Shown piece by piece: positions 1 to 14,245 of a stretch of 19,930 nt of DNA (position 1 is the first letter of the stretch; each line of letters opens with the position of its first letter). The translations under genes were made by a program, and so were the position numbers. Under the pieces are notes generated by a model. That model saw only the letters and a list, made by a program, of their open reading frames with translations. It did not search any database and was not told the DNA's origin. This stretch comes from a virus (lineage: Duplodnaviria; Heunggongvirae; Uroviricota; Caudoviricetes), in the IMG/VR virus record IMGVR_UViG_2529292724_000017. The stretch is one strand, 5' to 3'.

Positions 1-288
1 TTACCGCCGCAGCCGTTCCGGCTTCTTCCACTGGTAAGTATTTTTCGCGCTCTCCCTCCGTTGTTGAGAACGGCGACGGTATGCCAGCAACTCAAGGACT
101 CTTGTTCGTATGTTGCGCATATCCACGCCGTTAAGCTCAATACCGTCACGGAGCATCACCTCAGCCACCACACGCGCGTAATTTTCAGCGGTGACTGTAT
201 CCGGCTGCGCGGCCTGTTCGTCAGCCAACTGGCTGATTCCACCAGCACAGCGGATTAATCGCAGTATTTCAGATTCGGTCATTATCAT
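1..288 (-). CDS. hypothetical small basic protein (95 aa) immediately downstream of terS; possibly packaging-associated
   Basis: Complete ORF with stop at 1..3; start overlaps terS stop by 4 nt (ATGA coupling); basic C-terminus (RRRSQQRRESAK). No family recognised. Confidence 0.45.
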   Translation of the reverse strand: MIMTESEILRLIRCAGGISQLADEQAAQPDTVTAENYARVVAEVMLRDGIELNGVDMRNIRTRVLELLAYRRRSQQRRESAKNTYQWKKPERLRR

Positions 289-770
289 GCCTGTTTTGCG
301 ACCTCATTCACTACGTCATTTTTTACCATCCGGCTGATAATCTGATTACGCAAATCGTCAATAATTGACTGCACTCTGTTTACTGCCATCGGTTTAAGCC
401 CGGCATCACGTGCCAGAATATTGGGGAGTTTTGCCAGTTCCTCGCTTACGATTTCCCCCCATATAGCCATCTCTTTTCGCACATCATCGGCGGGTATGAG
501 TTGCGCCGTTTCCTGTTCGAACCTGAGGCGCTCACGTTCGGACTGATACCAGGCCTTACGGTCATGTGGCTCCATTTCTTCCAGTGATGCCGGAACGGGA
601 AGATCAAGAAAACAGGTCAGAATGTCAGTCACCCGATAGAGTTTTAGCTTGTCATGCCCTCCGGCTGGCTGGATGTTTTTCAGCCTTGCCGCCGCAGTCT
701 GACGACATATTCCCGCTATCGCCGCCAGTTGATTAATGTTCAGCATCAGATTTTTCAGTTCTCGATCCAT
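285..770 (-). CDS. terminase small subunit, lambda Nu1-like (N-terminal winged-HTH DNA-binding domain)
   Basis: N-terminus MDRELKNLMLNINQLAAIAGICRQTAAARLKNIQP...YRVTDIL resembles lambda Nu1 as recalled (KKQLADIFGASIRTIQNWQEQGMP...YDSAAVIKWY); later ERERLRFEQE resembles Nu1 ERHRLTRAQAD. Start placed at the internal ATG (Met30 of the track ORF, whose own start at 857 is TTG). Confidence 0.6.
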   Translation of the reverse strand: MDRELKNLMLNINQLAAIAGICRQTAAARLKNIQPAGGHDKLKLYRVTDILTCFLDLPVPASLEEMEPHDRKAWYQSERERLRFEQETAQLIPADDVRKEMAIWGEIVSEELAKLPNILARDAGLKPMAVNRVQSIIDDLRNQIISRMVKNDVVNEVAKQA

Positions 771-922
771 ACCCGCTCCAGAATGTTTTAAACATGCATC
801 TTGCGAACAACTTTCAGAAGAGGTCAAAAAATGCGCTATATGTTGAGCATAAAACAAGCAAAATTAACATGCTAAAAATAAAAATACTTAAAATTCAATA
901 CAATGGAAAGATGATGATGACG

Positions 923-1022
923 AATGAAAATGCAAAAACTAGCCTTTTTCCGCGCCGCTCCCGCCCCGTGGCAGGTCACTACACCGGGAGGACCCGCAAA
1001 AAAAGGCGGCTATCGCCGCCCT
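923..1022 (-). promoter_or_regulatory. conserved ~100-bp element, copy 1, between capsid stop and terS; contains intrinsic-terminator-like hairpin (GGCGGC-tatc-GCCGCC plus T-run on minus strand, about 997..1021)
   Basis: Near-identical to 13777..13850 and related to 4568..4668; GC hairpin followed by T7 on the minus strand directly after the capsid stop. Confidence 0.5.
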
Positions 1023-1027
1023 TGTTG

Positions 1028-2629
1028 TCATGCTCCACTCGATTTCAGTAATCCGCGATAGTCGAGGGCCGCGACACCTGCATCTATGCGCACCTTCCAG
1101 GCGACGCCATCAACAGTAAATCCCTCCTGCTCCTCAAGATATGGCGTATCAATACCATCAAGATAAGCGACCTCTATCGTGTCCATCCCCTTCGCCGCTG
1201 CCACATACCACTCCTTGTTATTGGCTTTATCAAGACGCGGCTCGACGATAACCTCTGCCATATCTTTCACCACGTTAATGATGCCGGGGTTCTGATTGAT
1301 AGTGCCTCCACCATCAATCGGAAAGAGTGATGACGATGACAGAATGGCGCGATGTGCGGCAGACTCCAGCGCAGCAGGGACCAGAACAAAAGCGGGGGTA
1401 ATATTCAGGGAGTCGCCGTTGCCATCCTCCTGTAATCGCATCAGCTTACGGGCTTCGTTAAGCCCCTCCATGTCCATATCCTTCGCAATAAGATTTTTAT
1501 GATCGGCATGGAATAACGCTTTACCATCCGTAAATTTGCCGTTGCTGGTTAACAGAAGATAAACCAGATTACCTACTGTTCTGGCGGCCGCACGCCCCAT
1601 CGCCATGGGGATTGTAGTTAACTGGGTCAGGTCATCGTTGATAATGGCCTGACGGGTAACAGAAAAAATATTACCGTATGTGGCCAGCGCAATAGGTACA
1701 CCTTTATCGCTGGTGGTGATGTATTTATATTCCGCACCTTCCGGTACTTTATCCAGCTTTGAAAAACCATTCAGACCAACGCGCTTTGCTTCATGAAAGT
1801 TTGAAAGCGATCCGGTACACGTCCATTTCTGGAACGTTTCGCCGCTGTCCTGCCAGCCTTTCAGCACTGATTTTTCAGCACCACCAGCCAGAATATGAGA
1901 AAAATCGCTGCTGCTGTGTGTGAAAGCTGCATTAACGACCTGCGAGCGATTTAAAAAATTGCCAACACTGATACCACGATCAGTTAGTGATGCCTGGGCC
2001 ATTTCAAAAAGGCTCATCATCGCGTAAGGATTTCCCCGCTCTGGGCGTTCATACCCGAGACGAGAATAAAGCCCCTGACGAATTGCATCGCCTGTTATGT
2101 TCCCGTTACCGGCATAAATATGAGTCGGGATATTTTTATTGGATGGCGTGGACTCGCGCCCCAGCTCGTTCAACAACTTTTCACGGGCCATCTCCGGTGT
2201 ACATGATGCATCCTCCAGGCACGCCATTTTGATCCCGTCGTAACGACTGCCGAACAGGCTAAACACTTCACTTATTCCGTTGATGCGCTTCTGTTCATTA
2301 CCAGCAATATTTGCCGCTCCCTGTGGCGGTGTAATCATTCCTTTAATGGTTTCCGGCATATGTAAAAAATCTCCTGTGCGTTTCGATTCAATTCGCGCCA
2401 TTACTCTGACGGATGGCAACAATTCATCAGCAAAACCGTGCTTAAGGCATTCTTTCCCATCCATCCAGGTTTCATCCTCCAGCATGGCGGTAATTTCCTG
2501 TGCTGATTTGCCCGTTTTTCTGGCATAAGCAGGGATTAACACGGTTTCCACCTTATCCAGCAAATCAGCATAATCACGCATATCGCCAGCATTTCCGCCA
2601 GAGATCCCCCACGGTTTATGGATCATCAT
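1028..2629 (-). pseudogene. ClpP-like prohead protease / HK97-like major capsid fusion, 3' portion only (gene interrupted by nested element)
   Basis: Colinear with the intact 638-aa paralog (4671..6587) from MMIHKPWGISGG onward; homology stops exactly at the 12-bp repeat 2618..2629; the first six codons of the track ORF lie in insert DNA. Confidence 0.75.
2618..2629. repeat. 12-bp direct repeat ATGGATCATCAT, left copy (putative att core / junction)
   Basis: Identical 12-mer at 12935..12946; capsid homology ends and begins exactly at the two copies. Confidence 0.65.
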
Positions 2630-2696
2630 GCAATACATTGAAATCATCCTACTGATAAATAAGATTAAAAATCACAATACAGATACGTTTGAGCTT

Positions 2697-2721
2697 CATT
2701 GCAATACGCATTGCAATACAC
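2697..2721. repeat. tandem repeat cattGCAATACgcattGCAATACAc (arm-type-like sites) near left junction; GCAATACA also at 2630..2637
   Basis: Same motif tandemly repeated at 12784..12807 immediately upstream of the integrase start. Confidence 0.5.
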
Positions 2722-2965
2722 GGTTGCTGGGTGATTTCAAAAGATGAATGCTGCGAAGGATGGAAATTTGGGAACTAGGTGGTGAATAGCACAACAAAAA
2801 ATCAGAATTCTACTAGCTTAAAATGATGCAAAAAGCATTCGTGGCATCGCAAGCGCTGTACAATTCGTTCTATAATGAAGAAAATTTCTAACAGACTTTA
2901 TCATTCAAAGGTGGAGGAGATGACAGCAATGCAACATGCATCACGCTCATACTTGAATTGTAAAG

Positions 2966-3010
2966 CTATCGTTAGAATCACAGCCTTTTTGTTCCGCTGA
3001 TCTAACGATA
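2966..3010. promoter_or_regulatory. perfect 10-bp inverted repeat TATCGTTAGA / TCTAACGATA with ~25-bp spacer, about 60 bp upstream of the cargo operon
   Basis: Seen directly; AT-rich intergenic region preceding ORF 3070. Confidence 0.3.
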
Positions 3011-3069
3011 AAACTAGTGGTAAAAGGTATATTTTTTAATTTTTCAGACGCTGGCGCGGGGTAATTAAA

Positions 3070-3372
3070 ATGAAATTTGTAAATATACGGTCATCCGAGT
3101 TGCCTGAAATAGATACCTTTGTAAAAGAATGTATCAACCAAGGACAATGGACTCTTTTCAAGGCCGAGAAGGGTGCAGTTAATGATAATAAAGTTGCTTT
3201 TTTTCTAAAGGCTGGCAAAGATTTCTTTGCATTAAATAACAGAGGAAGTGTTATCTCTGTATTTCAATCATTAGATTATAATCTTGAAATGAATGAGGTA
3301 ATTCATTTTTCAGATATTCCTAAACCTGAATCGTTGAGCAATATTGCTAGCTTAGGATTTGCTAGAGTTTAA
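3070..3372 (+). CDS. hypothetical protein (100 aa), first gene of AT-rich two-gene cargo cassette
   Basis: ORF in AT-rich block; 18-nt gap to the next gene, which has a good SD; no family recognised. Confidence 0.55.
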   Translation: MKFVNIRSSELPEIDTFVKECINQGQWTLFKAEKGAVNDNKVAFFLKAGKDFFALNNRGSVISVFQSLDYNLEMNEVIHFSDIPKPESLSNIASLGFARV

Positions 3373-3390
3373 TATATAAGGATATGTACG

Positions 3391-4281
3391 ATGGGATTAA
3401 TATCTGGAAATACACATTGGGTATTATTTTTACCTTGTGAGCACCAACCAGAAGATCGCCATGTTCAAGATTTAGTTCATGGCGTCTTTTGCTTAGAATC
3501 CTCAGGTATACAGCCATCTAATATTAGCATATATATTGATGGCCAAAATAGAGCCAACTTTAATAAGTTAATTTCGATTGCAACCCAACATAATTATACT
3601 ATCAAGCCTACATCTGAATTTTTCACCGACTGCGATACAAATAGTTATGAAAATCTAGTTATGTTTGTGACCGGACACGGAAGTATGAATGGTTTGGACT
3701 CTGCGCCGATCATAACCCCATACCGTTTATTGGACAGGTTAAAAAACACTCCTGTTCTCAAGCAAGCAATCGTTTATCTTGGTCAATGTTTCGCTGGTGT
3801 TTTCAACTACTTACCTGCTGGGCAGCGTAAGAGAGGTGAAGATGCCGACCCCGATGTCATTCTTATCGGGGCTACGAGTCTTCATGAAAGTTTGAGTAAT
3901 CCAACAACGGAAAATATTAATGGTATAGATTTTCCTTGGGTTGCAAATCAATTTTTATATCATGTATTTAAGTGGATATCATCCCCGAATGATATCGATG
4001 GGGATGGAAAACATACAGTAATTGACTCTTATAAGTATGCTGGAATCTCATCAAACATGACCAATCGTAGAATGAAGATAGGTTCTTTTGTAGCTTCGGT
4101 AGACTTGCATGAGCAATGGAATACTGCAAAAAAAGATCATGAAGCTAACTTGGCTGATCCACAAAAACTACTCCGTTATAGAGCATTAGATCAGCAATAC
4201 TATGAAAAACTGAACATTAACTATATTCATCAAGAGTGCTGGATATTAAATTCTGTACCTGCACAATCTGTTGAATTCTAA
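3391..4281 (+). CDS. caspase-like (clan CD cysteine peptidase fold) protein, 296 aa
   Basis: Hydrophobic strand then His-Gly (LVMFVTGHGS, H96) and hydrophobic strand then Gln-Cys (AIVYLGQCFAG, C133) about 37 residues apart, the pattern of caspase/clan CD catalytic dyads; SD AAGGA 8 nt upstream; EF-hand-like loop DIDGDGKHTVID at residues 201..212. Confidence 0.6.
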   Translation: MGLISGNTHWVLFLPCEHQPEDRHVQDLVHGVFCLESSGIQPSNISIYIDGQNRANFNKLISIATQHNYTIKPTSEFFTDCDTNSYENLVMFVTGHGSMNGLDSAPIITPYRLLDRLKNTPVLKQAIVYLGQCFAGVFNYLPAGQRKRGEDADPDVILIGATSLHESLSNPTTENINGIDFPWVANQFLYHVFKWISSPNDIDGDGKHTVIDSYKYAGISSNMTNRRMKIGSFVASVDLHEQWNTAKKDHEANLADPQKLLRYRALDQQYYEKLNINYIHQECWILNSVPAQSVEF

Positions 4282-4285
4282 TCCT

Positions 4286-4456
4286 TTACTTTTTTGAATA
4301 GATTGCTGCAAGTGCCGTTTTGAGGTCGTAATTTCGGCACTTGCAACTGCAACCAGAAATAGGGCGAACGTTTGACAAACGTTTAGCTATAGTCTGCCGA
4401 TGAAATCCAGTCACTTCCGCCAACTCACTTAAATTTAGAACTATCTTTTTCATCAT
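4286..4456 (-). pseudogene. truncated Nu1-like terS remnant (56 aa, DNA-binding domain only)
   Basis: Not in the supplied ORF track (below its length cutoff); translated by hand from the minus strand as MMKKIVLNLSELAEVTGFHRQTIAKRLSNVRPISGCSCKCRNYDLKTALAAIYSKK, which matches the N-terminal HTH region of the 285..770 product and Nu1; about a third the length of the full gene. Confidence 0.5.
4307..4345. other. perfect 11-bp inverted repeat TGCAAGTGCCG / CGGCACTTGCA (17-nt spacer) between convergent genes
   Basis: Seen directly; lies just 3' of the cargo operon stop and inside the terS remnant; no flanking T-run. Confidence 0.35.
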
Positions 4457-4567
4457 AATTACCCTTCAGATGTCGAACAAATAACATACAATCCATCATC
4501 TTTTCCACTTTTATAAAGTTTTACCTAATAAAATTCAGTTAGTTAGCGAATGATGATGATGTCTATA

Positions 4568-4668
4568 AAATTCAAAAACTAGCCGTTTCCCGCGATGCCG
4601 CCGCCCCGTGGCAGGCATCCCCGCCGGGAGTACCTTTTAAAAAAGGGCAGCATCTGCCGCCCTCCTGT
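4568..4668 (-). promoter_or_regulatory. conserved element, copy 2 (diverged), between capsid stop and truncated terS; terminator-like hairpin GGCAG-cat-CTGCC plus T6 on the minus strand, about 4638..4664
   Basis: Shares the aaaaactagcc...ccgccccgtggcagg...ccgggag core with copies 1 and 3. Confidence 0.45.
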
Positions 4669-4670
4669 CG

Positions 4671-6587
4671 TCATGCCGCCCCGCTCGACTTCACCATGCC
4701 CCGATAATCCAGCGCCGCCACGCCAGCATCGATACGCACCTTCCATGCAATACCGTCCACAGTGAAGCCCTCCTGCTGTTCCAGATACGGCACGTCCATT
4801 CCATCCAGATATGCCACCTCGATAGTGTCGGTGCCTTGCGCTGCAGTGACGTACCACTCCTTGTTGTTGGCCTTGTCCAGTCGCGGCTCAACCACTACCT
4901 GCGCCATATCCTTCACGACGTTGATAATGCCTGGGTTCTGGTTCAGCATACCGTTCTGGTCTACCGGGAACAGCGAAGATGATGACAGCACAGCTCGATT
5001 GGCTGCGCCTTCCAGCGCGGCAGGTACAAGGATATAGGCTGGGATAACATTAATAGGATCGCCGTTCGCATCCTCCTGCAGACGCATAGCCTTACGGGCC
5101 TCATTGAGTCCGTCTGTATCCATCCCTTTAGCGATGAGGTTTTTATGGTCGGCGTGGAACAACGCTTTACCATCTGTGAATTTGCTGTTGGCGGTCAGTT
5201 GCAGGTAGACCAGATTGCCAACCGTTCGTGCGGCGGCACGCCCCATTGCCTGTGGAATGGTCGTGAGCTGGCTCAGGTCATCGTTGATAATGGCCTGGCG
5301 TGTAACAGAGAAGATGTTTCCATAGGTGGCCAGCGCGATCGGCACCCCGCTGTCGCTGGTAGTGACATATTTGTATTCAGCACCTTCCGGGACTTTATCC
5401 AGTTCTGAAAAACCATTCAGACCGACACGTTTAGCCTCATGGAAATTCGACAGAGAACCGGTCTTTGTCCACTGCTGGAAAGTTTCCCCGCTGTTCTGCC
5501 AGCCAGTCAGCACCGACTTTTCAGCACCACCAGCCAGGATATGAGAGAAATCACTGGTGCTGTGCGTAAATGCCAGGTTCACGATCTGCGAGCGATTCCC
5601 GAAACCACTGACGCTGATACCACGATCCACCAGCGAAGCCTGCGCCATTTCAAACAGACTCATCATGGCGTAAGGGTTTCCCCTTTCGGCGCGTTCGTGA
5701 CCCAGACGGGCAAAAAGCCCCTGGCGGATAGCATCGCCGGTAATGTTGCCGTTACCTGCGTAAATGTGCGCGTTACTGGTTTTATCCGATGGGGTCGAGG
5801 TCTTACCCAGTGCCGTCAGCAGCATGTCTTTTGCTTTTTCAGGCGTGCAATCCACATCCTCCAGACACTGCATCTTGAGAGAATCATGCTTGCCGCCGAA
5901 CATGGCAAACAGATCCTTAATCTCGTTGATGCGGTTCTGTTCCGGTACAGCGCTACTGGTGGAACCTTTCGGGCTGGTGATCATCCCTTTAATTTCTTTT
6001 GGCATATGCTCAAAATCCTCAATTCGTTTTGACTCAATACAGGCCATTGCCCTGACGGCGGGTAACAATTCGTCAGCAAAACCCTGCGCTACACATTCGC
6101 GGCCATCCATCCATGTTTCATCCTCCAGCATTTCCGCCAGTGATTCGGCTGATTTTCCCGTTTTGCGTGCATATGCCGGGATCAAGACACTTTCGACTTT
6201 ATCCAGAAGTTCGGCGTAGTCGCGCATGTCGTTGGCGTTCCCACCAGAGATTCCCCACGGTTTGTGAATCATCATGAGTGCGTTTTCGGGCATAACGATA
6301 CGGTCGCCAGCCATTGCAATAACTGACGCCATAGACGCGGCGAGACCGTCGATCTGCACTGTAATTTTTGCCGGGTGTTTATTCAGAAGGTTATAGATAG
6401 CGATGCCGTCAAAAACATCGCCACCGGGTGAATGAATGTGCAGGCTGATATGGGAGATATCGCCTAGGGCTTTCAGGTCTTCGGAGAACTGCTGCGCCGT
6501 AATACCCCAGCCGCCGATCTCTTCGTAGATGCTGATATTGGCGCTGGTGCCATCGCTGGCCGCTTTGATGGTGTACCAGCCTTTCAT
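4671..6587 (-). CDS. prohead protease (ClpP-like, serine motif GLAASMAS) fused to HK97-like major capsid protein, 638 aa, intact
   Basis: N-terminal ClpP-like block (IHSPGGDVFDG...GLAASMASVIAMAG); long C-terminal region typical of major capsid proteins; colinear with both fragments of the interrupted paralog. Confidence 0.7.
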   Translation of the reverse strand: MKGWYTIKAASDGTSANISIYEEIGGWGITAQQFSEDLKALGDISHISLHIHSPGGDVFDGIAIYNLLNKHPAKITVQIDGLAASMASVIAMAGDRIVMPENALMMIHKPWGISGGNANDMRDYAELLDKVESVLIPAYARKTGKSAESLAEMLEDETWMDGRECVAQGFADELLPAVRAMACIESKRIEDFEHMPKEIKGMITSPKGSTSSAVPEQNRINEIKDLFAMFGGKHDSLKMQCLEDVDCTPEKAKDMLLTALGKTSTPSDKTSNAHIYAGNGNITGDAIRQGLFARLGHERAERGNPYAMMSLFEMAQASLVDRGISVSGFGNRSQIVNLAFTHSTSDFSHILAGGAEKSVLTGWQNSGETFQQWTKTGSLSNFHEAKRVGLNGFSELDKVPEGAEYKYVTTSDSGVPIALATYGNIFSVTRQAIINDDLSQLTTIPQAMGRAAARTVGNLVYLQLTANSKFTDGKALFHADHKNLIAKGMDTDGLNEARKAMRLQEDANGDPINVIPAYILVPAALEGAANRAVLSSSSLFPVDQNGMLNQNPGIINVVKDMAQVVVEPRLDKANNKEWYVTAAQGTDTIEVAYLDGMDVPYLEQQEGFTVDGIAWKVRIDAGVAALDYRGMVKSSGAA

Positions 6588-6796
6588 TTTTCCCCTTCCG
6601 TTACAGCGAAGCCATTTTCATCAAGCCATGCGTTGACTGCGTGCCGGACTACCTGTGCCACTCCGGGCAATGGCTGGACAGGAAGATTTTTCAGATGATC
6701 GTTGCGGTATTGCTTAAGGCGTACAACGGTTTGCGCGTCCAGATGTACGGAGCCGCCTTTAGTCTCGCCAGTGTTTAAATCGTTAATGTCACTCAT
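6584..6796 (-). CDS. small conserved protein (70 aa) translationally coupled to the protease-capsid gene
   Basis: Homolog of 13258..13464 (MS.INDLNTG...GGSVHLDAQTV.RLKQYR...PLPGVAQ.VRHAVN.WL..NGFA); ATG at 6794..6796 with SD GAGGA; 4-nt overlap with the capsid start. Confidence 0.6.
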   Translation of the reverse strand: MSDINDLNTGETKGGSVHLDAQTVVRLKQYRNDHLKNLPVQPLPGVAQVVRHAVNAWLDENGFAVTEGEK

Positions 6797-6941
6797 GATG
6801 TCCTCTACTGTATAAGTAAACAGGTTATGATGATTGATCACCAAAAGTGGTAAGTGAACAATTTTTTATCTGAAAAATAGATTTATGATGAAAAAAAATT
6901 TTTGTATGGTCTTAGATTGGAATAAACAGAAAGGTTAAAAA
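6797..6941 (-). promoter_or_regulatory. putative promoter region of the small-protein/capsid operon, with conserved TTACCACTTTT box
   Basis: Boxes aaaagtggtaa and aaaaatagatt recur at 13500..13550 upstream of the paralogous operon. Confidence 0.3.
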
Positions 6942-7655
6942 ATGGATCTCACTCGTAATGACGAACTCCTTTTGAATGATGCAGCTAGACGCTCATTTCG
7001 GGATATGGCAGACCAGGATTATCTCTCAGCTCGTCTGTGTTATAAGCACAAATTGAATTTTCAATTTTTATGGCTTTCGCAACAAGCCGTAGAGAAATAT
7101 ATTAAAGCGATTTTACTTTATAATAGAGTTCCAGTATTAAAATTAAATCACAATTTAAACAAAGGGCTGGCAAAGATTAAAGAAATCCCATATCTTGAAT
7201 TAGACCTAGATGTAAAAAGTGAGCGATTCATAGATTATCTCAATGAGCAGGGCCCAAATAGATACTTCCAAAACACTATGTATACCGAAGGCTTTGAAAT
7301 TATAACCTTGGATAGAACCATCTGGGAATTAAGAAGATACTGCAAGCCACTAAACTACTCAATTACTAACCCAAAAGGTGAAGTGATAGAAATGTTAGAA
7401 CATGAATTGAGTAGCATAAAAAATTCGAAGTCGAGGCCTTATCATACGTTCAAACTATTTGGAGGTTACTTAGAAAAAAGATTAAAAGATAATAAATTCA
7501 ATCAGGGCGACATACTTACATGGAAAAATTTATTTTTTGGAAGAAATAAAAAAAATGCAATTAGAATTGGAAGATCAATGCATGTAACTCATCCAACTCA
7601 TTATATGTACCCAAATGCAACGGAAATGCTCAGTCGTTTCTTTAAAATAAAATAA
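6942..7655 (+). CDS. HEPN-domain protein (237 aa), single-gene AT-rich cargo
   Basis: N-terminal region matches the HEPN pattern as recalled: helix, then SQQAVEKYIKAILL, then NHNLNKGL, then ...NRYF (compare hQQAvEKalKAll ... tHdL ... RYP); SD AAAGG; opposite strand to backbone. Confidence 0.5.
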   Translation: MDLTRNDELLLNDAARRSFRDMADQDYLSARLCYKHKLNFQFLWLSQQAVEKYIKAILLYNRVPVLKLNHNLNKGLAKIKEIPYLELDLDVKSERFIDYLNEQGPNRYFQNTMYTEGFEIITLDRTIWELRRYCKPLNYSITNPKGEVIEMLEHELSSIKNSKSRPYHTFKLFGGYLEKRLKDNKFNQGDILTWKNLFFGRNKKNAIRIGRSMHVTHPTHYMYPNATEMLSRFFKIK

Positions 7656-7743
7656 TTACATTCCAATTTTATTTACCGCTGTTAAATAAGTAAGGTATAT
7701 CTTTATTTATCGACATTGATAATCATGAAAGAGTATATCTTTT

Positions 7744-7960
7744 TTGCCGCACCTAGCGCATTTCTCACCGCACTTTCATCCCGCGCACTTAGGTGCGCAA
7801 TCCAACATGCACCGTACAGCCATTAAAACCAGTAATGGGGCGGGTTTGCAGGTGATTAATGCCAAACCGCGCACTTTCTTCGTATATACATGGAAAAAGT
7901 GCGGCAAGTGTATGTTTTATGAGCATTTCGCGCATCACGCGCATTTCTTGCCGCACTTTT
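7744..7960. repeat. iteron-type origin region: repeats of (T)TGCCGCAC / CGCACTTT in both orientations plus palindrome GCGCACTTAGGTGCGC
   Basis: Five or more copies within ~220 bp immediately downstream of the replication gene ending at 7965. Confidence 0.5.
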
Positions 7961-7964
7961 CAGG

Positions 7965-9374
7965 TTAAATTATCGTGATATCTCCTGAATCATCGATAAA
8001 GATAATATTCTCCCTAACGAGTTTATCAAGCCAGCGTTTAAAACCTTTGCGGCCGTTCTCTCCAAACAGAGTGGTAATATCATCACGTATAACAGAGACA
8101 TTACACGGTTCACCTTTGGCTTTTCGGCTCCGGATTGACTGCCAGAGTGCAGCGTGGTTCCCAGTCAGGTGCTTGATATCAGCAAGTTCCGGATCAGGTT
8201 CTCGTGCCTCTCGTGGCAGGTCCTGCACCACCAGCGACGAAATAAGCTCACCATCACGATCTGTGAACAATTCGATCGGACGCAGATCGAATGCGGCCTG
8301 TTTCGGCTCCTCCGCATCTTTCATCTTCGTACAGGTCAGGATTATCGCCCCACCATCCCCCTCGCGCCGGACATTGAACTCTGCATCGAGCGCAGCCCTG
8401 AAAGCACTGGAACCACGTGCGCCTTTGGTATCGTCTTTTCCTGAATGATGCACCACCAGCAACGTGGCGCCAGTCTCACGCTTGATGACGTCGCAGCCTT
8501 CAATAAACGCCCCCATGTCACGAGCATCGTTTTCATCGTTACCACCAAAGCACCGCGCTAGAGTATCTATGACAATCAGGCGAACCGGCTGCCCCGTTTT
8601 GGACTTAACGTCACGCGCAGCTTTGATCATCTCCTGCATTTCCTCACGGCGAACCGGGAAAACCGGACGGTTTACCAGATACAGATTATTTAGTTTCACA
8701 CCATGTTTTTTCTCCCACGCCTTTATTCGCCGCGGAACGCCAATACCACCTTCACCTACTACGTACATCACAGCGCCGGCTGATACCGACTTCCCCGCCC
8801 ACTTCATCCCGGCTGCAACGTGACAAGCCCAGGACACCGCCAGAAAACTTTTATACGAACCGCTCGGGCCGTAGATACTGCTCAGGCTGTTAGCGGGAAG
8901 ATAACTTTTTAACGTGTAATCCTGCTCCTGATCGTACCCATCAGAGCCCACGCTTAAAGGAAGGCTGTGCCGCAGTGACTCCTCTCGCACAGAGACTTCA
9001 ACCTGTTCACGCAGACGAGAAAGATATTCCCTCCAGTCCTCAGGCTCATGGTCGGGGATTCCTTTATACAATTTGGCATCCTGCACGCCAGCCAGCGCCA
9101 GCTTTTCAGCAATGTTATTAATCTGGATAGGCTTTATATTCCCTGCCAGGTAAATCCGCACGGCACGACGGCCATCATCCACAATGCGCAGGTTATCCAG
9201 CTCTGCCAGTTGTTTTGGCCCAAGGTAAACAGGAGGAGTGGTATCTTCGGCAATCTGTTTACCAAGCCCCTCTTCCCAACCCTTCGCATGGGCGTATGCT
9301 TCTGACCCGGCAAAAATAACTGCCTCCGTGAATTTTTCTTTTGGCAGGTGTTTCAGATTCGGTGCGTTTTTCAT
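7965..9374 (-). CDS. replication initiator: primase-associated N-terminal domain fused to RepA/DnaB-like RecA-fold ATPase (469 aa)
   Basis: Walker A GPSGSYKS and Walker B-like LIVIDTL; first ~125 aa shared with the 14246..16063 product. Confidence 0.65.
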   Translation of the reverse strand: MKNAPNLKHLPKEKFTEAVIFAGSEAYAHAKGWEEGLGKQIAEDTTPPVYLGPKQLAELDNLRIVDDGRRAVRIYLAGNIKPIQINNIAEKLALAGVQDAKLYKGIPDHEPEDWREYLSRLREQVEVSVREESLRHSLPLSVGSDGYDQEQDYTLKSYLPANSLSSIYGPSGSYKSFLAVSWACHVAAGMKWAGKSVSAGAVMYVVGEGGIGVPRRIKAWEKKHGVKLNNLYLVNRPVFPVRREEMQEMIKAARDVKSKTGQPVRLIVIDTLARCFGGNDENDARDMGAFIEGCDVIKRETGATLLVVHHSGKDDTKGARGSSAFRAALDAEFNVRREGDGGAIILTCTKMKDAEEPKQAAFDLRPIELFTDRDGELISSLVVQDLPREAREPDPELADIKHLTGNHAALWQSIRSRKAKGEPCNVSVIRDDITTLFGENGRKGFKRWLDKLVRENIIFIDDSGDITII

Positions 9375-10487: not shown

Positions 10488-10540
10488 TTTTCACAAGCAC
10501 TCTTTGATTTTTTCAGTAAAAATTAAATTAAGGAAATTCT

Positions 10541-11251
10541 ATGGATGATTTATATACACCATCTGAATATTTTATGTTCGTAGAGAAATTTGATCATTAC
10601 TTCCCACGAAAAAGCCCTTTTAACTCATTATTATTCGAGTTCAATTATAGATTAGAAGATATAGTTGTTTTTCATCGCTTTGTTATCAACACCTATTCAA
10701 AAAATAAAAAAGCAATTGATGTACAATATAATAAATTTAATTTTCTTGATGATAAACAAAAAAATTCCCTTTCTGATGACGAGTATGAAGCGTATCAACT
10801 CAGGTTTGCAAGGCATATGGAATACATTAACCATCAAACTGATTTGAATGAAAAAGCGTCTTACATTGCTAACGATAGTGTCGTTATAAACTTATGGGCC
10901 ATGAATGAACAATATATGACTAGAGGATTGGCCAACCTAATATCTCAAAAAGAAAATAAAAATTTAAATGAAGTTAAAACGCCTTACAAATGGGATACAA
11001 TCAAAAGTAAATTCCTGTCATATGGAATCAACTTTGAGACATTGCCATCTTATGATGACATTAATGAATGTAGAGTACTGAATAATAAAATAAAACATCT
11101 GAACATAGTAGATTCTGGTTTAGAAGTTTTCCCTCCCTTCAAAGGTAAGCTTAACGAATCACTTACTGGCATGGCCTTTCCTCTTCAAAAATATATCATA
11201 GGCTCTCATCACTTTATAGGAATGCTATTAGAAGAGTGCTCATTAAAATAA
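10541..11251 (+). CDS. hypothetical protein (236 aa), AT-rich cargo downstream of the RHH regulator
   Basis: SD AAGGAA; 53-nt gap after the RHH gene with no obvious terminator; no family recognised. Confidence 0.55.
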   Translation: MDDLYTPSEYFMFVEKFDHYFPRKSPFNSLLFEFNYRLEDIVVFHRFVINTYSKNKKAIDVQYNKFNFLDDKQKNSLSDDEYEAYQLRFARHMEYINHQTDLNEKASYIANDSVVINLWAMNEQYMTRGLANLISQKENKNLNEVKTPYKWDTIKSKFLSYGINFETLPSYDDINECRVLNNKIKHLNIVDSGLEVFPPFKGKLNESLTGMAFPLQKYIIGSHHFIGMLLEECSLK

Positions 11252-11543: not shown

Positions 11544-12771
11544 TCCTTTTCTTAATTACTTTTACTGTATTTTCTTCACCCACCAGCCCATCAAGGTAGT
11601 CAACCCATCGGTCCAGTGCTTCTTGCTTTTGAGGGATATACTTGCTGCGGTTATAGACTCCGGCCACGCCCTTTATGGTATGCCCCAGCAGCTGCTCTAC
11701 GACCATAAAATCAACGCCCATATCGTTAAGGCTTGTCGAGAACGTTCGTCTCAAATCATGTAATGACCAGCGTTTTTCATGTTTCAGAGAGATAAAGTTT
11801 GTGCATCCCATCGTACTGACGGTTGAATCAGATTTCAGTTCGCCAAATATGTAGCCTCTCCTTTTAGTCTCTTCGTGCAGGTTTACGATCCACTGGCGCA
11901 TTTTTTGAGGAACGGGGCGAATAATTTCTTCGCCGTTTTTACTGTGCTCTTTAGGTACTGTCCAAATCCACTTATCGAAATCCCACTCATCCCATGTAGA
12001 TAAACGCGCCTCACTCAGCCTGCAGCCAAACACGAGACACAAAATCGCCATCCTTTTTTTGTAATTCATTACACGGGTTTTGCCTTTACCATGAAAGTAC
12101 ACTCCCCACAGATCGGCGACGTAGCTTTCCTCAAGTAGCCGCTCTCTCTTGTTCTGATACTTACCGATATCACCAGGGCTCAAATCATCAAGCACATTGC
12201 ACCGCACATACTGGCGCACCCGGCAGTATTTGAAGATCTGCTTTAACTCAATCAGCATTGCAGCAGACTGAACCGGCGCGATTTTCTTTATGCGGTCGAA
12301 GCACTTGATCCAGTCTGACAGACCGCATTTCTCGACAGGAAACCCGCCGATGTAGGGAAAAATGTATCTCTCATAACGGCGATAGAGCCGTAAAGTCTCT
12401 TTGCGCTTTTCCCTGGCATAGTTATCAAACCAGTAATCGATAGCGTTCTTCACAGTTACTGGAGTGAACAGGTTCTCTTTGGTGAGTTTGTTCTCTATTC
12501 GTGGGTCGAGTCCCTGAGATAGCCATGCCCGGCACTCGTCCCTTTTCTCTCTGGCCTGTTTAAGGGTCATATCTGGATACTTGCCTAACGTCATCCAGAC
12601 GGGGGCGCTTTGTCGGCCGGAATGTCTGAAGAAATACACAAAGCTCACAGTGCCACTAACGCTCACTCTGACAGACAGTCCACGACCATCTGCCACCATC
12701 TTTTGACGCGGCTGGGGTTTACCATGTAAGGCCTTTAACGCCTTGTCGCTTAACTTGTTCTCGCCCGCCAT
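11536..12771 (-). CDS. int: tyrosine site-specific integrase, P4-type (411 aa)
   Basis: Length and motifs of phage integrases (C-terminal LHDLRRTF, LLGH, then Y in VYNRSKY); paralog at 18701..19930. Confidence 0.8.
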   Translation of the reverse strand: MAGENKLSDKALKALHGKPQPRQKMVADGRGLSVRVSVSGTVSFVYFFRHSGRQSAPVWMTLGKYPDMTLKQAREKRDECRAWLSQGLDPRIENKLTKENLFTPVTVKNAIDYWFDNYAREKRKETLRLYRRYERYIFPYIGGFPVEKCGLSDWIKCFDRIKKIAPVQSAAMLIELKQIFKYCRVRQYVRCNVLDDLSPGDIGKYQNKRERLLEESYVADLWGVYFHGKGKTRVMNYKKRMAILCLVFGCRLSEARLSTWDEWDFDKWIWTVPKEHSKNGEEIIRPVPQKMRQWIVNLHEETKRRGYIFGELKSDSTVSTMGCTNFISLKHEKRWSLHDLRRTFSTSLNDMGVDFMVVEQLLGHTIKGVAGVYNRSKYIPQKQEALDRWVDYLDGLVGEENTVKVIKKRSA

Positions 12772-12783
12772 AAAACCTCATTC

Positions 12784-12807
12784 TGCAATACACATTGCAA
12801 TACACAC
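12784..12807. repeat. tandem repeat TGCAATACAcatTGCAATACAcac immediately upstream of the integrase start
   Basis: Same motif as 2697..2721 at the other end of the inner element. Confidence 0.5.
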
Positions 12808-12934
12808 TTAACTGCAACGCCGAAAAACAGTAGAAAAGCAATGCAAACAACACCTCTTCTTTCTTCATAATTAACAATAAGTTAATGAATGAATACGGTT
12901 CTTCATGCGTACCCATGAGGTAGTGTGAAGGATA

Positions 12935-12946
12935 ATGGATCATCAT
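12935..12946. repeat. 12-bp direct repeat ATGGATCATCAT, right copy (putative att core / junction)
   Basis: Identical to 2618..2629. Confidence 0.65.
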
Positions 12947-13258
12947 CATGGCGTTCTCCGGCATCACTACACGATCGCCAGCCATTGCGACCACCGAAGC
13001 CATTGAAGCCGCAACACCATCGATATAAACCGTAATGTCTGCCGGATGATTCCGTAGCAGGTTATAGATGGCGATGCCTTCAAACACATCACCACCTGGT
13101 GAATGGATCCTCAGATTGATATGTGAAACATCGCCAAGGGCTTTCAGGTCTTCCGCGAACTGCTTTGCAGTAACACCGAAGCCGCCAATCTCCTCATAGA
13201 TAGATATATCCGCCGCTCCACGAACATCCGCCGCCTTAATGGTGTACCAGCGATTCAT
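12935..13258 (-). pseudogene. ClpP-like prohead protease / capsid gene, 5' portion only (N-terminal ~108 codons)
   Basis: MNRWYTIKAADVRGAADISIYEEIGGFGV...GVAASMASVVAMAGDRVVMPENAMMMIH is colinear with the N-terminus of the intact paralog; the track ORF 12719..13258 reads on into insert DNA after the repeat. Confidence 0.7.
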
Positions 13259-13464: not shown

Positions 13465-13562
13465 AGTAACTTCCTCTTACTGACTAAACTGTGCACATTA
13501 TTGATCGATAAAAGTGGTAAATAAATATATTTCTATCATAAAAATAGATTAATCAGATTCAG

Positions 13563-13589
13563 ACACAAAAAAGCCGGAGAAAATCCGGC
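13563..13589 (-). terminator. intrinsic-terminator-like hairpin GCCGGA-gaaaa-TCCGGC followed by T6 on the minus strand
   Basis: Seen directly. Confidence 0.4.
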
Positions 13590-13776
13590 ATAAATACCCC
13601 GCCATCTGAACACGTTTTGACACTGGCAACTCCACCTGGCAGGTGAAAAACAGATTTATTTATATATTTCAATTAATTGCAAGCTGGTCTAATGACAGGG
13701 AGAAAAAAATATTGTACAGGTGAAAACAGAAATAATTTTTAATTATCAATAAATTATCAAACATGCTGCCGCCGCC

Positions 13777-13873
13777 ATGAAAATGCAAAAACCAGCCTTT
13801 TTCCGCGACGCTCCCGCCCCGTGGCAGGTCACTACACCGGGAGGACCCATAAAAAAGCCGGATTGCTCCGGCT
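13777..13873 (-). promoter_or_regulatory. conserved element, copy 3 (near-identical to copy 1 over ~75 bp) with terminator-like hairpin GCCGGAgcaaTCCGGC plus T6 on the minus strand (13850..13873)
   Basis: Direct-repeat copy lying upstream of the small-protein/capsid module rather than downstream of the capsid gene. Confidence 0.45.
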
Positions 13874-14005
13874 TCTGTTACTCGTTGCTTAAAACGGTAT
13901 GTTATCCCCGTACGGATCATCATTCCCCGCCTGTTGTTTTGGTGTGCTTCGCTGTCATAGGCTTTATCTCACAGCAGTAAATTAAAATTTTTGCGTTTTA
14001 ACCCT

Positions 14006-14232
14006 TCACCTGTTCACCTTTTGATATTTTCTCTTTTAATTCATAATGTTAAGGGGTGAACAGTTTCACAAAAACTATTCACCAACTGTTCACCACTGTT
14101 CACCCTTGAAGCTCAATAAACAATCAAAAAGGTGAACAGTGAATAGTTTGGTGAACAGTTCATAAATAACTGCTCACCCTATAATATACTGATATAAAAG
14201 ATATTTATGACAGGGTGAACAGTGGTGAACAG
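14006..14232. repeat. iteron-type replication origin: eight or more copies of GGTGAACAG / CTGTTCACC in both orientations with AT-rich spacers
   Basis: Copies near 14009, 14055, 14086, 14096, 14131, 14151, 14214 and 14224; immediately downstream of the primase-helicase gene. Confidence 0.65.
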
Positions 14233-14245
14233 TTATTCCATAAGT

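Follow-up and report, generated by a model that had tools for sequence, protein, structure and literature searches.

The DNA examined here is a 19,930-nucleotide stretch from the IMG/VR virus record IMGVR_UViG_2529292724_000017 (Duplodnaviria; Heunggongvirae; Uroviricota; Caudoviricetes), hereafter called the window, and it carries a stand-alone gene for a 237-amino-acid (aa) HEPN-family protein (Table 1). The window segment is 100% identical to the chromosome of Escherichia coli O114:H49 strain 90-9280. In the annotated locus, two satellites with integrase, AlpA, replicase, and capsid-fusion genes lie between tRNA-Ile/mug and nfeF, and the protease/capsid gene of the outer satellite is interrupted by the inner one. 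The inner and outer elements that had been proposed in an earlier, sequence-only reading of the window are therefore real. RefSeq/PGAP already labels the protein a “HEPN domain-containing protein,” and thus the domain call itself is not new. Among 5,426 complete E. coli genomes, the same allele (at least 99.8% identity) is present in nine and any allele in only 34.

The gene differs from its surroundings in composition and orientation. Its GC content is 0.33 (positions 7001 to 7500), compared to 0.51 at 6001 to 6500 and 0.53 at 8001 to 8500, and it is antisense to the satellite backbone, whose flanking genes are all on the minus strand. The sequences that adjoin it in the window are satellite backbone: a protease/capsid fusion gene and an 86-aa core gene on one flank, and iteron-like repeats next to a gene for a RepA-type helicase on the other. 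This layout agrees with the sequence-only reading, which had described an AT-rich, 237-aa gene opposite in strand to the backbone and located between the capsid module and the replication origin.

The open reading frame (ORF) is not a chance occurrence because a word-index search returned 50 homologues and an exhaustive HMMER search returned 1,620 representative clusters (50% identity) at E ≤ 1e-3, with nearly all matches extending over the full length. A total of 410 of these clusters match at E ≤ 1e-30, and nearly all family members are 235 to 280 aa long and align from end to end. Members recovered in our genome scan come from Pseudomonadota, Acidobacteriota, Planctomycetota, Verrucomicrobiota, Nitrospirota, Desulfobacterota, Cloacimonadota, and Chlorobi.

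A hidden Markov model (HMM) match and a predicted structure both identify the N-terminal part of the protein as a classical PF05168-type HEPN four-helix bundle. Residues 20 to 101 match Pfam family PF05168 with 25.4 bits against a curated cutoff of 22 (E = 1.6e-5), and 112 of 127 diverse relatives match this family on their own, with a best E value of 6.3e-12. AlphaFold2 modeled the full-length protein confidently, with a predicted local distance difference test score (pLDDT) of 92.8 and a predicted template modeling score (pTM) of 0.90, and the predicted up-down helical bundle is superimposable on solved PF05168 members. The HEPN assignment made from the letters alone is thereby borne out. 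Sequence searches of the Protein Data Bank (PDB) with two family profiles returned only a marginal match to ST0689 (E = 0.037) and two chance matches, and a viral structure library gave no match at E ≤ 0.001 (best E, 0.98).

The remaining residues form a C-terminal extension that had previously been described as unrecognized. Indeed, residues ~132 to 237 have no family match in Pfam, PADLOC, NCBIfam, PHROGs, or the PDB, and no structural neighbor among solved or viral structures covers the region. The extension is nevertheless conserved across the 127 homologues, most clearly at G175, L177, and E178 of a GGxLE motif and at L192, W194, and N196 of an LxWxN motif. Blocks of C-terminal residues have pLDDT values of 78 to 96 in the full-length model, whereas the C-terminal 110 aa predicted alone reach a pLDDT of only 68 and a pTM of 0.45. 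Because the region models poorly by itself and confidently in the full-length protein, these predictions suggest that the extension depends on packing against the HEPN core and is not an autonomous domain.

Conservation was assessed with an alignment of the 127 diverse sequences, which are 27 to 65% identical to the window protein. Ten positions are invariant, namely the eight listed for the HEPN bundle in Table 1 together with L192 and N196, and another 19 positions are at least 90% conserved. The HEPN motifs quoted in the sequence-only reading prove to be the most conserved positions of the family, with E51, K55, H70, R107, and Y108 invariant and K52 present in 126 of 127 sequences. The strict retention of polar and charged residues at such levels of divergence argues for a working site rather than a decayed domain. 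One metagenomic representative (P0061, 520 aa) carries an additional C-terminal helical region of ~270 aa after a normal 250-aa unit, which may represent either a further effector or sensor fused to this unit or a merge introduced by gene calling.

The search for partner genes covered the 75 of 80 genome-scan loci in which the family gene was recovered. ORFs were called in these 75 loci, and four neighbors on each side were compared all against all. No partner family recurs across these diverse loci, and the largest cluster of neighbors spans only four of them. Therefore, a two-gene system can be rejected, and the gene behaves as the single-gene unit that had been proposed. A possible lineage-specific arrangement occurs in Marinobacter nauticus (three loci), where a family member (42% identity) lies 77 bp downstream of, and on the same strand as, a gene for a PARIS/OLD-like fusion of an ABC-ATPase (AAA_21) and DUF4435. 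These fusions are 505 to 534 aa long; in one of the three loci (L006), the fusion gene occupies approximately 6319 to 7923 and the family gene 8001 to 8747. The pairing of an ATPase-DUF4435 protein with a HEPN protein, which could constitute a two-gene arrangement of that lineage, was not seen in the other loci examined.

The position of the gene is a true cassette hotspot. We made a three-way DNA alignment of the outer element of the window, a satellite from E. coli CFSAN064035 that carries a HEPN allele (63% aa identity), and a satellite from CFSAN061763. The latter two encode an identical capsid-fusion protein (WP_001017075.1). All three elements share near-identical left flanks, formed by the core gene, and right flanks, formed by GGTGAACAG iterons, and the slot between these flanks is empty, occupied by the HEPN gene, or occupied by a gene for a single-stranded DNA-binding protein (SSB) plus a hypothetical gene. 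The 86-aa core gene adjoins the slot in sister satellites both with and without the HEPN gene. Thus, the two claims that the gene sits in a satellite hotspot and that it has no counterpart in the outer element both hold: the equivalent interval there (approximately 13525 to 14245) is not long enough to hold the gene and shows up as a deletion when aligned with the HEPN-carrying sister satellite. Furthermore, enterobacterial HEPN alleles with 49 to 71% identity, found in Citrobacter, E. coli, and two metagenome assemblies, occupy exactly the same position, antisense and between the capsid-fusion gene and a replicase gene that encodes either a RepA helicase or a D5-type primase.

The HEPN gene is not a core gene of these satellites, since sister elements lack it and alleles are as rare in complete E. 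coli genomes as noted above. Related protease/capsid-fusion genes occur in 2,184 genomes, but among four of these matches that we inspected, three (69 to 72% identity) belong to lambdoid prophages and one to a satellite. Homologues of the capsid-fusion gene that are close to full length are found in roughly 200 E. coli genomes. The HEPN gene is thus accessory cargo. The contents of the CFSAN061763 slot (positions 8003 to 9205 of that locus), an SSB gene and a small hypothetical gene, indicate that cargo at this hotspot is not uniformly defence-like.

Outside satellites, the genomic context of the family provides suggestive but mixed evidence for an association with defence. One homologue, seen in two metagenomic loci, is inserted into a type 1 BREX operon, with pglX on one side and pglZ on the other; in one of these loci (L012), the gene occupies 6001 to 6768, is flanked by PglX and an SLFN_AlbA_2/HATPase_c_4 gene, and is upstream of PglZ and BrxL. 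A Verrucomicrobia homologue likewise starts 6 bp after a PglX-like methyltransferase gene (1876 to 5898 in its locus), and BREX-associated homologues are therefore present in two distant, unrelated lineages. The Marinobacter member that follows the PARIS/OLD-like fusion gene also speaks for a defence role. One homologue overlaps an Abi_C gene and another follows HicAB, and copies on conjugative or mobilizable plasmids adjoin Abi, antirestriction, and DUF4041 genes. A PADLOC scan of 126 pooled neighbors additionally identified candidates for MADS, AriA/Old/GajA-like, PbeA, type I and type IIG restriction-modification, PtuA (Septu), and PDC proteins. No relative of the protein was found by tblastn among 50,697 phage records, and on this basis we rejected a phage origin of the gene.

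Table 1. Features in and around the HEPN cassette (window coordinates)
Feature	Position	Strand	Remarks
Solo HEPN-family gene	6942..7655	+	ATG-to-stop ORF, 237 aa; RefSeq WP_000366548.1; full-length homologues
HEPN (PF05168-type) helical bundle	6954..7334	+	aa ~5-131; invariant D24, R31, E51, K55, H70, R107, Y108, R131
Family-specific C-terminal extension	7335..7652	+	aa ~132-237; GGxLE motif (E178), LxWxN motif (L192, W194, N196)
Cassette-specific 5' leader of the HEPN gene	6887..6941	+	Read from sequence; Shine-Dalgarno-like AAAGG 8 nt 5' of the ATG
AT-rich spacer from stop codon to origin repeats; approximate right cassette end	7656..7742		Boundary by analogy with sister-satellite alignment
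Putative satellite origin with iteron-like repeats, direct and inverted; conserved right flank of slot	7743..7960		
86-aa satellite core gene (phrog_4934); conserved left flank of slot	6584..6844	-	PHROGs match, 1.9e-23
ClpP-like prohead protease/major capsid fusion gene	4671-6587	-	
RepA-type AAA_25 helicase gene	7965-9374	-	

The limits of the cassette can be placed approximately from its flanks. Judged by eye, its left boundary probably follows the backbone-like sequence ending in AAAAATAGATTTAT, and in sister satellites the conserved left flank stops at a similar backbone block that ends in ATAAAAAT(A/C)GATT(A/T)AT. To the right, directly downstream of the RepA helicase gene, are direct and inverted repeats of (C/G)CGCAC/TTT, which include one 34-nt repeat pair, four CCGCGCACTT-like units, and a perfect 14-nt inverted repeat (7895 to 7908 and 7947 to 7960). 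Repeats beside a RepA helicase gene are the layout that would be expected of an origin next to its initiator gene.

Several observations were also made on other parts of the window. The outer protease/capsid gene is split into fragments at 1028 to 2647 and 12719 to 13258, with the junctions of the inner element at approximately 2600 to 2720 and 12790 to 12950. The N-terminal fragment of the outer fusion protein ends with PENAMMMIH and the C-terminal fragment restarts with MMIHKPWG. A 12-nt sequence, ATGGATCATCAT, is present at both junctions, and the 13-mer CATTGCAATACAC is found at 12793 and 2709. Because the junctions share these sequences, the inner integrase may target a conserved site in protease/capsid genes, one that is also carried by lambdoid helper prophages. 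The protease/capsid fusion and DUF1441 genes of the satellite have ~70% DNA identity to the head module of common lambdoid prophages, and in three E. coli examples (L098 to L100) portal, terminase, and tail genes are arranged around these two genes. Such prophages are likely helpers of the satellite or donors of its capsid gene.

Two further AT-rich segments resemble cargo. At the far end of the inner element is a two-gene cassette (3070 to 3372 and 3391 to 4281, plus strand; GC content of 0.34 to 0.38), at a position that in sister satellites holds a DUF1441 gene and a gene of ~93 aa. It encodes a protein of 100 aa (phrog_30138, function unknown) and one of 296 aa that has no match in Pfam, PADLOC, or NCBIfam and displays a caspase-like His/Cys pattern (FVTGHGS ... 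YLGQCFAGVF). To judge from these features, the cassette may be a further cargo system. A third cargo gene, again AT-rich and antisense (10541 to 11251, plus strand; GC content of 0.28 at 10501 to 11000) is located between a HicB-like gene and an AlpA-like regulator gene and encodes a 236-aa protein without a match in Pfam, PADLOC, NCBIfam, or PHROGs. Sister satellites hold other genes at this position, for example, one encoding DUF6387.

Our best explanation, to which we give about an even chance (probability of roughly 0.5), is that a satellite resembling phage-inducible chromosomal islands (PICIs) carries the HEPN gene as cargo and that the HEPN protein acts by itself as an effector of immunity or abortive infection, to the benefit of both the satellite and its host. 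The case for defence, and equally for toxicity or anti-helper activity, is entirely one of genomic association. According to this model, the protein would be made in an inactive state, with inhibition plausibly exerted by its own C-terminal extension or by oligomerization. A component of an infecting phage, or some change induced by infection, would then relieve the inhibition, possibly through the C-terminal extension. The freed HEPN core would bind and probably cleave RNA (tRNA, mRNA, or rRNA), and this cleavage would stop translation and thereby cause abortive infection or growth arrest.

A number of observations weigh against this interpretation, and the first of these concerns the catalytic step. 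The sequence-only reading had invoked the RNase activity that is common among HEPN proteins of abortive-infection and toxin systems. However, the canonical Rx4-6H catalytic motif is absent from the window protein, which continues after R107 as YFQNTMY without a His. Likewise, 88 of the 127 relatives (69%) lack a His in the nine residues that follow the invariant Arg, and ~20% have a His at x5 or x6. The invariant His of the family is H70, which is elsewhere in the domain. RNase activity cannot be assumed given that the motif is missing here and in most relatives, and by sequence the protein belongs to PF05168 and falls outside the canonical Rx4-6H HEPN RNases. This pattern fits the tabulation of Anantharaman et al. 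(2013), in which the motif His is frequently substituted in PF05168 HEPNs (“HEPN-T”) and another part of the domain contains a conserved His. The same authors noted that HEPNs without the motif still scored as toxins in a genome-scale screen, and both points count in favor of the effector model. It is possible that catalysis proceeds instead through an alternative site composed of H70, R107, Y108, D124, and R131.

The other opposing points concern context and precedent. Many homologues reside beside housekeeping genes, including those for DnaE (twice), RNase J, a permease, nitrogenase, and 2-oxoacid dehydrogenase. Models from PADLOC, NCBIfam, and PHROGs gave no significant match to the HEPN protein, and the 127 homologues yielded only one borderline match (OloB, E = 0.0098) in PADLOC-DB v2.0.0, a release that does not cover systems described after 2023. 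Simple consensus scans around the gene revealed neither a promoter nor an intrinsic terminator. In the literature that we could search, we found no study of this HEPN family, no mention of the accession, and no experiment on the protein or any relative. On balance, the earlier interpretation is partly supported: its statements on the C-terminal half, the single-gene status, and the satellite hotspot stand, whereas its RNase step is not supported and its defence or anti-helper role is a proposal drawn from genomic association.

Three other explanations deserve consideration. The protein might be a noncatalytic HEPN regulator or adaptor with RNA or a nucleotide as its ligand, a role that has been suggested for MtlR and for the HEPN domain of human sacsin, in which case the gene would have no role in immunity and would be incidental cargo. 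We regard this as unlikely because an invariant set of ten residues, of which eight are charged or polar, would sooner be expected in an enzyme or in an effector engaged in conflict, and because the patchy distribution of the family on mobile elements (the few E. coli genomes, satellites, plasmids, and insertions into BREX operons) fits an effector. Moreover, no regulated operon accompanies the gene. A self-contained toxin for addiction or stabilization, with the C-terminal region acting as a fused antitoxin that keeps the satellite in the chromosome, is more improbable still, given that the protein has no minimal nucleotidyltransferase (MNT) or other recognizable antitoxin domain and that sister satellites lacking the gene are still maintained. 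Addiction is difficult to distinguish from abortive infection in practice.

There is also the possibility that the gene serves the life cycle of the satellite or counters host defences, either through interference with the helper (for example, by degrading its late transcripts) or through inhibition of a host defence. The location between the satellite replication and capsid modules is compatible with such a role, as is the fact that an SSB, a replication protein, can fill the same slot, and satellites are known to carry genes for helper interference. Yet most related satellites lack the gene, and members of the family occur in at least eight phyla and mostly in places other than satellites, among them the interior of host BREX operons. 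This wide distribution, together with the absence of relatives from all of the phage records searched, makes a life-cycle or counter-defence function very improbable.

We also entertain a more specific version of the immune-effector reading, although we hold it tentatively and consider it rather doubtful. The E. coli protein would then represent a large single-protein immune family that spans many phyla and uses a noncanonical site composed of H70/R107/Y108 plus D124/R131, with a C-terminal region that wraps around the core as a built-in phage sensor or gate. If true, this would be a second, mechanistically distinct family of “solo HEPN” immunity proteins besides HepS, and classical HEPN-T domains that are not paired with an MNT would be assigned a function for the first time. 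HEPN domains rank with the most common effector modules of prokaryotic conflict systems, and for the classical PF05168 branch, which often lacks Rx4-6H, there are almost no functional data. The E. coli gene offers a tractable entry point: it is a single gene of 237 aa with a confident model, invariant residues, and sister satellites with an empty slot as natural controls. In addition, the hotspot between the origin and the capsid gene of a non-P4 satellite could be a source of additional systems. Should the gene prove to have no part in defence, it would show that a “toxin-like” domain in AT-rich hotspot cargo is not by default a sign of immunity.

That HEPN genes occur in satellite or prophage hotspots is an expected theme already. 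What is new here is a large, unnamed family of full-length proteins with a conserved, apparently non-autonomous C-terminal extension and noncanonical invariant residues, the lack of any recurrent partner, and a cassette hotspot in a satellite that is not of the P4 type. Among the closest known systems is the classical PF05168 (“HEPN-T”) domain, with the solved members TT1696 (1ufb), AF0298 (2hsb), TM0613 (1o3u), and ST0689 (1wol). These are 120 to 150 aa long, consist of the domain alone, and are mostly paired or fused with MNTs, an association that is frequent in PF05168 without being required. The family described here has no such MNT partner, and its members are longer by a conserved C-terminal extension of ~105 aa. 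Indeed, we observed no nucleotidyltransferase domain in the HEPN protein and none recurring among its neighbors.

The HepT/MntA type VII toxin-antitoxin system (5yep, 7ae2) also differs, in that its toxin belongs to another HEPN family (DUF86, with an RX4HXY motif) and requires an adjacent MNT antitoxin that AMPylates it. The window protein has no DUF86 match, its flanks are the satellite core gene and the origin/RepA region, and neither the window locus nor the 75 related loci contain an MNT gene or domain. HEPN proteins of abortive infection, such as AbiV of lactococci, Abi2/AbiD/AbiF, and AbiJ/Abi_C, have no sequence-level relationship to the window protein, and their conserved residues are different.

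As a genomic setting, the slot is most like the psu-int hotspot of P4 (Rousset et al. 2022, PMC9122126) and the immune systems of PICIs, where AT-rich cargo is likewise swapped between conserved flanks of near-identical elements. Genes with HEPN domains were already recorded in the untested part of the P4 hotspot cargo. Unlike P4, the satellite studied here is an integrase/AlpA/primase-or-RepA element with its own ClpP-protease/capsid fusion gene, and its slot extends from the origin to the capsid gene. As a protein, a close parallel is HepS (“HEPN Solo”) of the Salmonella prophage Gifsy-1 (PMC13043305; PDB 9oik), which is held inactive until a phage structural protein triggers tRNA cutting. 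The window protein has no sequence homology to HepS with its canonical R-x4-H motif. It does share the layout of HepS, namely, a single HEPN protein of ~220 to 240 aa whose gene has no partner and occupies an accessory position on a mobile element. HepS thus provides a precedent for a solo HEPN protein that acts in defence.
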